From positions 64,001 to 128,000 of the forward strand of contig JBCBZT010000003.1 of NCBI GenBank assembly GCA_039815185.1: 64,000 nucleotides of DNA, read 5' to 3'. Source of the DNA: Cyanobacteria bacterium P01_A01_bin.123 (GTDB lineage Bacteria; Cyanobacteriota; Cyanobacteriia; Phormidesmidales; Phormidesmidaceae). Below, piece after piece: positions 21,960 to 25,382 of this stretch. A program made the position numbers and the translations under genes. Below the pieces are notes generated by a model. It worked only from the letters and a program-made list of their open reading frames with translations, did no database searches and was not told where the DNA came from. Each line of letters opens with the position of its first letter. The stretch's first letter is position 1.

Positions 21960-22316
21960 TTATCCTCCGCTAATTTTGACCTGGTAGCCCTTCCCCTTCA
22001 GCAGCGTCACCAATTTGTCCCGGTGGTCGCCTTGAATTTCTAGGGTGTTATCTTTCACCGTGCCGCCACTGCCGCATTGGGCTTTTAGGTCTTTCGCTAG
22101 GTTAGTGAGGGTTTCCGGTTTATGTTGAAATCCGCTGACGATAGTTACAGTTTTGCCTTTTCGCCCTTTGCGGCTGGCCTCTACTTTGATGGACTGCTGA
22201 TTGGGTGGCAGGTCGGGTACCCCTCGGGCAAAGGCACTCGCTTGGGATTGGCCAAACTCCTGGTAAGCGACGCGATCGCGGTTGGGATCCGATGATTTTT
22301 TCTTGCGGCTCGACAT
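21960..22316 (-). CDS. yciH: SUI1-family translation initiation factor
   Basis: RKGRKGKTVT, CGSGGTVK, IQGDHR motifs. Confidence 0.92.
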   Translation of the reverse strand: MSSRKKKSSDPNRDRVAYQEFGQSQASAFARGVPDLPPNQQSIKVEASRKGRKGKTVTIVSGFQHKPETLTNLAKDLKAQCGSGGTVKDNTLEIQGDHRDKLVTLLKGKGYQVKISGG

Positions 22317-23591: not shown

Positions 23592-23624
23592 AAAAAAAGC
23601 CCGGAGCCTAGGGCTCCGGGCTTT
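23592..23624 (-). terminator. Attenuator terminator 2
   Basis: AAAGCCCGGAGCC-CTA-GGCTCCGGGCTTT followed by TTTTA, about 60 nt before the aroF start. Confidence 0.9.
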
Positions 23625-23645
23625 GGCAAACCATAGGTCAGCCGA

Positions 23646-23708
23646 TCACCCAGAGCCTATCAGGGTGTAAAAGTAAAAATCAAAAAGCCAAGGGTTAGAG
23701 AGGGGCAT
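23646..23708 (-). CDS. Aromatic amino acid leader peptide 2: MPLSNPWLFDFYFYTLIGSG
   Basis: Hand-translated ATG..TGA; 6 aromatic codons within 8; the last codons GGCTCTGGG can pair with the 5' arm of terminator 2. Confidence 0.8.
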   Translation of the reverse strand: MPLSNPWLFDFYFYTLIGSG

Positions 23709-23739
23709 GGGGTTAAAACTAGATTGGGTTACAGGGATT

Positions 23740-23776
23740 AAAAAAACAAAAACCGCAGTGCCTTTGGCCTGCGGTT
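23740..23776 (-). terminator. Attenuator terminator 1
   Basis: AACCGCAG-GCCAAAGGC-A-CTGCGGTT followed by TTTGTTTTTTT. Confidence 0.88.
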
Positions 23777-23804
23777 CACTCAAGGTGCCATGCGAAAGCT
23801 GGAC

Positions 23805-23864
23805 TCACCCCCAGTGAACCGGAATAAAGTGCCAAAAATAAAACTTGTGGGCGATCGCGCTCAT
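23805..23864 (-). CDS. Aromatic amino acid leader peptide 1: MSAIAHKFYFWHFIPVHWG
   Basis: Hand-translated ATG..TGA; FYFWHF core; CGGTTCACT in the late codons is complementary to AGTGAACCG overlapping terminator 1. Confidence 0.8.
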   Translation of the reverse strand: MSAIAHKFYFWHFIPVHWG

Positions 23865-23904
23865 GGCAAAAATTCTTGCGAGGAAAATTCCTAACCTGTC
23901 TCGA

Positions 23905-23933
23905 ATCCTAGCAGGGCAAATTGGTAGCGTCAA
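23905..23933 (-). promoter_or_regulatory. Sigma70-type promoter of the leader-aroF transcript
   Basis: TTGACG - 17 nt - TAGGAT, with an extended -10 (TGn). Confidence 0.75.
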
Positions 23934-24631: not shown

Positions 24632-24946
24632 CTAGCTAACCGTCTTCGCACGGGAATTGGTGACAACCAACTCAAAATCCCAGTTGGGAATCTGGTTCAC
24701 CCGCTCTGCTATTCGTCGTAAATCTTCAGAACCGTTGAGGGTAAGATTCTCCCGTGTTCGTACTTCAACAGCAACGGTTCGCCCTTCGGCCTTTGCGACT
24801 AGATCAAGCGGGTGTTTCGATAACACTAGGGGTAGATCTTCAGCACCTGGATAAACCGTAACGTCGTACCCATGGCGACGATATTCGCGGGCCAATCGCA
24901 TGACACGACGGTGCTCTAGGGGAGTTTGGTGCGCTCTATAACTCAT
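24632..24946 (-). CDS. Small PD-(D/E)XK nuclease-like protein (archaeal Holliday junction resolvase-like)
   Basis: E..V..LAREYRRHGYDV...LDLVAK....VAVEVR pattern. Confidence 0.6.
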   Translation of the reverse strand: MSYRAHQTPLEHRRVMRLAREYRRHGYDVTVYPGAEDLPLVLSKHPLDLVAKAEGRTVAVEVRTRENLTLNGSEDLRRIAERVNQIPNWDFELVVTNSRAKTVS

Positions 24947-24965
24947 GGATAACCTAACCAGGAAC

Positions 24966-25382
24966 TCAAGCTAGCTCAGCCGGATCAGGAGCTCCCTCTA
25001 CCTTAACATAGAGAAATTCGTCTCCCTTACAGAACCCTTCTGCAAGCACCAGAGACATGCCCTTAATGCGGAAAGACCCATTCAGATTCCGGCGACGACT
25101 GACGAAATCTGTGATCTGATAATCATCTACATATACAACGCCATTGAGCGCATCCCGGACTGGCTTGACAATATTGTCGCTGTCGGGGACTGTCTCTTCG
25201 CCGTGCGGAGCGTCGTAGTAGTGGGTAATCGTGACTTTAACAGCCTCCCCCAAGGGCTGACTGCTAGGCCAGTTGACTTCGGCAGTGTGGCGCACTTTAC
25301 TTTTCCAATCCCGTAAACGTTTTTTATCTTTCGTTTGATGGGAAATGGGTTTGCCAATAACAATAAACTCGAAAGGAAGCAC
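24966..25382 (-). CDS. rusA: RusA-family crossover junction endodeoxyribonuclease
   Basis: GKPIS, PDSDNIVKPVRDALNGVVYVDDYQI (DxDNxxK..D...DD) motif. Confidence 0.85.
   Translation of the reverse strand: MLPFEFIVIGKPISHQTKDKKRLRDWKSKVRHTAEVNWPSSQPLGEAVKVTITHYYDAPHGEETVPDSDNIVKPVRDALNGVVYVDDYQITDFVSRRRNLNGSFRIKGMSLVLAEGFCKGDEFLYVKVEGAPDPAELA

Follow-up and report, generated by a model that had tools for sequence, protein, structure and literature searches.

How is a short DAHP synthase gene controlled when two small reading frames rich in aromatic codons, each followed by an intrinsic terminator, lie between its promoter and its start codon? This arrangement occurs in a 64,000-nucleotide stretch of DNA from Cyanobacteria bacterium P01_A01_bin.123 (hereafter the window), where an earlier note, made from the sequence alone, had proposed tandem ribosome-dependent attenuation. 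That proposal is supported by conservation, by frame-specific codons, by covariation and by an RNA of terminator-1 size in a relative. We assign a probability of about 0.83 to the reading that doubled classical leader-peptide transcription attenuation controls an accessory DAHP synthase that lacks an allosteric domain.

Two leader modules before a short DAHP synthase gene

The promoter, both leaders, both pairings and the gene start were confirmed base for base at the coordinates and with the sequences originally given for them, and the promoter was also picked up by a promoter scan (Table 1). Intrinsic terminators lie between promoter and gene, and each is mutually exclusive with an antiterminator whose 5ʹ arm resides inside a short, conserved leader ORF enriched in codons for the end products of the pathway. 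A simple terminator scan detected terminator 2 and missed terminator 1, which has a bulge in its upper stem. Leader 1 of this locus has no Shine-Dalgarno site.

Table 1. Features of the tandem leader region and its presumed target gene, in order of transcription (window positions)
Feature	Position	Strand	Evidence
Promoter, sigma70-type, extended -10 TG	23905..23933	-	Promoter scan and sequence reading
Leader peptide 1, 19 aa, predicted; control codons F8-Y9-F10-W11, F13	23805..23864	-	Sequence; conserved aromatic cluster
Antiterminator 1, Val-His codons paired to 5ʹ foot of terminator 1, long stem	23771..23822	-	-28.9 kcal/mol and covariation
Small alternative hairpin across leader-1 stop codon	23800..23821	-	-7.0 kcal/mol
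Intrinsic terminator 1 and U-tract	23740..23776	-	-18.2 kcal/mol, covariation, size-matched Nostoc PCC 7120 RNA
Leader peptide 2, 20 aa, predicted; control codons W7, F9, F11, Y12, F13, Y14	23646..23708	-	Sequence, conservation
Antiterminator 2, spanning entire 5ʹ arm of terminator 2	23611..23658	-	-29.4 kcal/mol and covariation
Intrinsic terminator 2 and U-tract	23592..23624	-	-24.9 kcal/mol, terminator scan, covariation
DAHP synthase gene, presumed target, 286 aa	22670..23530	-	TIGR01361, 344 bits; start codon 23530 after AGGAG site

The trpL and pheL attenuators of Escherichia coli are built on a four-segment layout, and the geometry of the present locus had been equated with theirs. The succession of leader, antiterminator and terminator holds, but the likeness is incomplete. 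The antiterminator of module 2 overlaps its terminator fully, which is the usual layout, whereas that of module 1 takes only the terminator foot beside the U-tract (the bottom 4-5 pairs) and leaves the top intact. A 1:2 protector hairpin in module 2 is a candidate without covariation support. The GGG-TGA ending common to both leaders, to which the earlier note had also drawn attention, is not conserved for leader 1 across loci.

The 8.1-Mb genome contains 53,653 ATG frames of 12-30 codons, 290 of which carry 4 aromatic residues in 6; with filter criteria chosen after the two leaders were known, a hairpin and U-tract follow only two of the 290, namely leaders 1 and 2. No further copies of either module were found elsewhere in the same genome. 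No Rfam family, the Trp, Phe, His, Thr and Leu leaders and T-box included, scored above its gathering threshold, and the best score (19 bits for Thr_leader, threshold 55) aligned the terminator part alone.

The gene product is a type I-beta DAHP synthase, scoring above the TIGR01361 cut-off. It aligns to positions 69-336 only of model PRK08673, and the nearest PDB chain (1vs1) is 276 aa long. As expected for a member of this class without a regulatory domain, the catalytic barrel is present and the N-terminal ferredoxin-like domain (PF18152) is absent; this domain is present in a long paralogue of 352 aa (L028). A different contig of the genome encodes another DAHP synthase (355 aa), which by its likeness we take to be type I-alpha, and therefore the 286-aa gene is an extra copy. 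No class II DAHP synthase was found in the genome. Judged from its domain content, the 286-aa protein is an accessory enzyme without a feedback domain, which would imply loss of feedback inhibition. Four long-form paralogues have no such leader upstream.

Two features of the surrounding DNA were also recorded. Upstream (24632-25382, minus strand) lies a small nuclease-fold gene pair encoding a RusA family protein (138 aa) and an REase AHJR-like protein (104 aa), whose conservation alongside the attenuator was not evident in the loci looked at. A YciH/SUI1-like translation factor gene (21960-22316, minus strand) begins 354 nt 3ʹ of the DAHP synthase gene, and neither this gene nor any other common downstream operon was found among the GTDB-derived loci compared.

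Conservation of the modules in cis to the gene

Short-form loci were collected from relatives (26 loci) and from GTDB genomes (the best 80 of 514), the latter spanning Nostoc, Tolypothrix, Fischerella, Mastigocoleus, Coleofasciculus, Leptolyngbya and two Obscuribacterales bins. After leaving out four duplicates and four loci with too little upstream DNA, 98 distinct assessable loci were available. Both leaders are intact upstream of the short-form gene in 95 of these, the exceptions being two loci with module 2 only (L039, L092) and one with a frameshift in the T-run of leader 1 (L065). The check on orthologous genes that the earlier note had recommended thus found the aromatic-rich upstream ORFs retained and their stems covarying. 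With L065 dropped, a promoter resembling that of the window precedes leader 1 in 83/97 loci, compared with 2/70 control windows further upstream and 2/97 intervals between leader 1 and the gene. Shine-Dalgarno-like sites precede leader 1 in 3/97 loci, leader 2 in 24/94 and the DAHP synthase gene in 84/97. The element is widespread among large-genome cyanobacteria.

Covariance models of each module, built from kin of the genomes searched, were applied to 151 genomes from the phylum, with part of the runs scoring just 26-27 candidates per genome. The short gene is present in 26 of these genomes; model 1 matched in 25, model 2 matched strongly in 25, and both matched in 24. One genome (G077, locus L117) has module 1 only and another (G126, L116) module 2 only. 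Among the 125 genomes without the short gene, a single strong match was recovered (G089), upstream of a decayed gene copy. Seven weak matches to the module-2 model were rejected as ordinary terminators.

To avoid circularity, metagenome contigs were also scanned with a pattern that holds the pairing segments of module 1 and no codon information. This structure-only scan yielded 106 matches, of which 97 are distinct and 96 have upstream DNA. An ATG frame with at least four aromatic residues is present in 91/96, and the six codons upstream have an aromatic share of 0.93 when read in frame, against 0.32 and 0.22 when read in the two other frames. A DAHP synthase gene follows in 66 of the 67 matches with enough DNA, and a second leader could be parsed in 83/93, most of the misses inspected being leaders with another ending. 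One of the 97 distinct matches (L132) was judged a chance match. In the genome runs and the structure-only scan alike, both modules were found only in cis to the short-form DAHP synthase gene.

Several loci depart from the common architecture. In G089 (L115:2300-2750), module 1 is still present upstream of a deleted DAHP synthase remnant. In G182 (L118:500-2130), an IS605-family TnpB element lies inside the 5ʹ part of leader 2, such that the modules are 1.6 kb apart, and in L160 and L183 a repeat has inserted at about the same site. The second hairpin of L179, L207, L212 and L218 has no U-tract and lies near the start codon, and therefore module 2 is possibly degenerate or translational there. 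L184:1790-3061 encodes a 423-aa DAHP synthase with a C-terminal chorismate mutase domain and retains both leaders. On metagenome contig L127 (1400-1800), both leaders carry Tyr codons only, in runs of five and four, and a chorismate mutase gene is situated 3ʹ of the DAHP synthase gene; by their codon content, these Tyr-only leaders would represent a natural change of specificity. In a bin labelled Actinomycetota (L086), a copy of typical cyanobacterial type is present together with both leaders, which reflects either contamination or transfer. For the two Obscuribacterales copies (L073, L105), inheritance and transfer were not separated by a tree of 68 rows from 167 (a quick, unfinished search in which five metagenome rows were assigned to Obscuribacterales by guess).

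Codons, RNA structures and the proposed switch

The coding signal of each leader is confined to one frame. An in-frame ATG with an open frame is present for leader 1 in 50/51 loci, compared with 0/50 for each other frame. For leader 2 the count is 61/66, the remainder starting with GTG or TTG, and none for the other frames, although this count is partly circular because leader-2 loci were selected with a start. Leader 1 has a conserved aromatic cluster 3-8 codons upstream of Val-His, and leader substitutions stay within Phe, Tyr and Trp. Of the 58 cluster codons of leader 1 that are one change away from TTT, 53 encode Phe or Tyr, which argues for selection on meaning and not on U content alone. 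The interval between Trp and Val changes in length in 3-nt steps.

Pairing was evaluated in alignments of 51 diverse loci for module 1 and 66 for module 2, using 500 shuffles. For each of the four stems, paired cells and cells with two-sided changes are both more numerous than in any of the 500 shuffles, and the stems also exceed slid controls. Antiterminator 1 has 88% of cells paired and two-sided changes in 7/12 pairs, and terminator 1 has 93% paired and changes in 6/10 pairs, with 0/500 shuffles as high in either case. Terminator 2 (90% paired) shows two-sided changes in 5/10 pairs. Antiterminator 2 (91% paired) has 30 cells with two-sided changes versus 11.5 in shuffles, but all come from 2/9 pairs, a number of covarying pairs not above shuffles. 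Few sequences supply the core of the covariation signal, and kinship among the loci, which shuffles ignore, inflates such tests. In L026 and L020 the antiterminator and terminator partners are altered together, and in L053 and L072 the C-terminal His of the leader is replaced by Arg with a compensatory change in pairing.

Other elements were sought in the same alignments. The hairpin across the leader-1 stop codon is 90% paired with covariation not beyond shuffles, and is a candidate that might serve as a pause or anti-antiterminator element. The YG of a pause signature peaks at offset 14 in 28/50 loci of module 1 and at offset 12 in 29/66 of module 2, both being broad peaks without covariation support. 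The motif TTNTTT, which we take to be a NusG-type pause motif, occurs in 36/50 and 50/66, respectively, and is confounded with Phe and Tyr codons.

Leader translation, ribosome stalling, an amino acid response and multiplicative logic are the steps that we infer for this element. When charged tRNA-Phe, tRNA-Tyr and tRNA-Trp are ample, the ribosome would traverse leader 1 and mask the 5ʹ arm of the antiterminator, such that terminator 1 forms and the transcript ends after about 160 nt. Polymerases that pass terminator 1 would face the same test at leader 2. If even a single one of these charged tRNAs is scarce, the ribosome would stall in the aromatic cluster just before the antiterminator arm, the antiterminator would fold first, and transcription would continue into the DAHP synthase gene.

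In a footprint model with a ribosome cover reaching 6 nt beyond the A site, the antiterminator has a probability of 0.94-0.97 of forming before the terminator is complete while the ribosome occupies aromatic codons, and the aromatic cluster ends where the antiterminator window ends, the zero values beyond that point being built into the model. Extending the cover to 9 nt puts the consensus Trp of leader 1 beyond the switch window; in the model, the control codons are thus placed as such a switch would need, subject to the ribosome cover assumed. An equilibrium model with the 6-nt cover gives terminator 1 a probability of 0.42-0.58 with a ribosome in the cluster versus 0.99 with a ribosome past it. 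Terminator 2 is still dominant at equilibrium under a stalled ribosome (mean 0.62-0.69; 0.90-1.0 at this locus), and therefore module 2 would need kinetic trapping or an order of folding.

Control described originally as ‘AND-like or multiplied’ can be narrowed by codon content. Within the switch window, both leaders carry Phe and Trp codons in 89/89 loci and Tyr codons in 85 each, and all three types are present in both leaders in 83/89. The genome has one tRNA type each for Phe, Tyr and Trp. Because both modules contain the same three amino acids, an AND function across different amino acids is disfavoured, and a series that multiplies one signal fits better. Such a series would be expected to square the leak and to make the response steeper.

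Rho was looked for and not found. Strong terminators within 12 nt of a stop codon number 1/61 in this genome (by a crude scan that had no control genome), a rarity compatible with transcription-translation coupling. The terminator signature of runaway transcription, as described in PMC7858274, differs from this pattern.

Published data for Nostoc PCC 7120 bear on the first terminator. RNA 3692672f (150 nt) has a start site mapped by dRNA-seq, was validated by Northern analysis in 2016 and is catalogued as an sRNA without function (PMC4734099 Table S3). Its sequence corresponds to module 1 with a GTG-started leader and, compared by eye, differs once from L101 over about 90 nt. According to the text of that report, all 14 RNAs tested were of the predicted size, the blot being ‘not shown’, and its main text makes no mention of attenuation or leaders. 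The DAHP synthase gene probably lies 3ʹ of 3692672f in this strain, given the likeness to L101. This RNA matches in size the premature 3ʹ end anticipated at terminator 1 and is in vivo support for the placement of the promoter and for transcripts ending at terminator 1; it is silent on regulation and on terminator 2. The next entry of the same table (row 174) is a low-level antisense RNA (118 reads; chromosome 3692999-3692803) over module 2, whose end coincides with terminator 1 in reverse orientation; this segment is flagged as ‘putative peptide according to RNAcode’, with the strand not stated. Nine RNA runs were listed for comparison, all as Logan contigs, and none contained half of the sequence words. 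Contigs from RNA runs of relatives (four runs compared with L084) span leader and gene, and such contigs cannot show ends, strand or level.

Alternative readings and significance

Chance association of short frames with ordinary terminators is refuted by conservation. Short frames and hairpins are indeed common, the weak model matches proved to be ordinary terminators, and one structure-only match arose by chance. Nevertheless, the genome-wide frame count, covariation, the runs on 151 genomes, the in-frame coding signal and the structure-only scan all speak against coincidence. Control without ribosomes is very improbable. In this case the frames would be incidental, and either U-rich elements would bind proteins or cause pausing, or module 1 would give rise to a trans-acting sRNA and module 2 would be controlled by antisense RNA. 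The leaders mostly lack Shine-Dalgarno sites, the module 1 RNA of Nostoc PCC 7120 is a stable and abundant entry in an sRNA catalogue, and module 2 is overlapped by a low-level antisense RNA. However, open frames that begin with ATG in only one of three frames, length steps of 3 nt and the occurrence of modules only in cis to the gene would be difficult to reconcile with incidental frames. We also consider it improbable, albeit less so, that the same switches respond to stalling by the nascent aromatic peptide (an arrest peptide that senses a free metabolite or stress) or to a general slowing of translation rather than to uncharged tRNA. Both leaders keep a strongly conserved FYFW core, Phe is encoded by TTT in 271/298 leader-1 codons versus 70% genome-wide (an unexplained bias), and reads from the 3692672f start site rise from 285 to 1402 upon nitrogen step-down in Nostoc (PMC4734099 Table S3). 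Against an arrest peptide, Phe, Tyr and Trp interchange freely and can be replaced by Tyr throughout (L127), C-terminal residues track RNA pairing, as in the His-to-Arg changes with compensation, and the target gene makes exactly Phe, Tyr and Trp.

A further possibility retains the attenuation mechanism, and thus overlaps the preferred reading, but differs in logic: each module would answer a different amino acid to form a true AND gate. Two non-identical units that differ in spacing and geometry are kept in nearly all loci, with Trp at the margin of window 1. Moreover, in the part of PMC11802643 available, the Corynebacterium glutamicum aroR leader (Phe-Tyr-Phe) is described as responding to Phe only and ignoring its Tyr codon, and therefore codon content can overstate input. 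The presence of all three codon types in both windows makes such a division of labour unlikely, as does the observation that a single module occurs alone before the gene in some representatives (module 1 in G077; module 2 in G126 and L039). Doubled attenuation by one shared input thus remains the preferred reading.

The closest functional likeness appears to be the aroR-aroF system of C. glutamicum, and the element would also work like trpL and pheL. As far as the consulted portion of PMC11802643 extends, aroR-aroF shares an aromatic-codon leader before a DAHP synthase gene and an increase in transcription upon stalling. It differs in that it has a single leader, belongs to another phylum and controls a feedback-inhibited enzyme, whereas here two leaders with 5-9 aromatic codons each, including Trp, precede an enzyme without a feedback domain; this comparison is of descriptions and not of sequences. 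The E. coli attenuators share a short leader, control codons before the antiterminator arm and an intrinsic terminator, but are described in the sections consulted (PMC11802643, PMC3641672) as single, specific for one amino acid, located before branch-pathway genes and equipped with a 1:2 protector hairpin. Salmonella mgtCBR likewise has two short frames in one leader (mgtM and mgtP), each controlling elongation, and its authors present these tandem attenuators as a singular example (PMC3641672, part consulted). However, mgtCBR integrates two signals (ATP and proline) without intrinsic terminators, whereas the present element has two terminators and apparently one input. A predicted upstream ORF with Phe codons and a terminator also precedes aroF in Acholeplasma (uORFC-13-1), but according to the available part of PMC8632094 this is a single element with 24 representatives, known by prediction only and from another phylum.

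For cyanobacteria, a 2016 survey states in the part consulted that reliable data on attenuation are lacking (PMC4833913), and no cyanobacterial attenuator appears in the rows of PMC1173090 examined. Term searches found nothing relevant in PMC13323073, PMC11109978, PMC11848123, PMC10895346 and the main text of PMC5737381, whose supplement might list the motif. At 34 of the 35 places where the PMC2965389 supplement names DAHP synthase, none of the entries is from Nostoc, Anabaena or Trichodesmium, and the portion consulted includes a single row, without annotation, for an aroF from a different family in Synechococcus. No published description of a tandem leader-peptide attenuator before a cyanobacterial DAHP synthase gene was found in the literature searched, which was largely open access. 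On balance, we consider it rather probable that this element is the first amino acid leader-peptide attenuator from cyanobacteria, and that it has a new serial layout in which each module reads three aromatic tRNAs and which replaces the missing allosteric domain. New here are the scan by structure alone and the connection with a validated Nostoc RNA.

Attenuation by amino acids requires a ribosome close behind RNA polymerase, and such coupling is not universal (PMC7858274). If the preferred reading is correct, transcription and translation would be functionally coupled in a lineage that lacks Rho and in which initiation is mostly independent of Shine-Dalgarno sites, and the validated sRNA 3692672f would be explained as an attenuated transcript. 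Nostoc PCC 7120 offers a direct test of coupling, since both the transcription start and the short RNA have already been located there, and the element allows examination of what is gained in leak and steepness by serial duplication of one sensor. It may also find use as a native biosensor of aromatic amino acids for cyanobacterial engineering. The element would further represent allosteric control given up in favour of transcriptional control at the entry step of the shikimate pathway.
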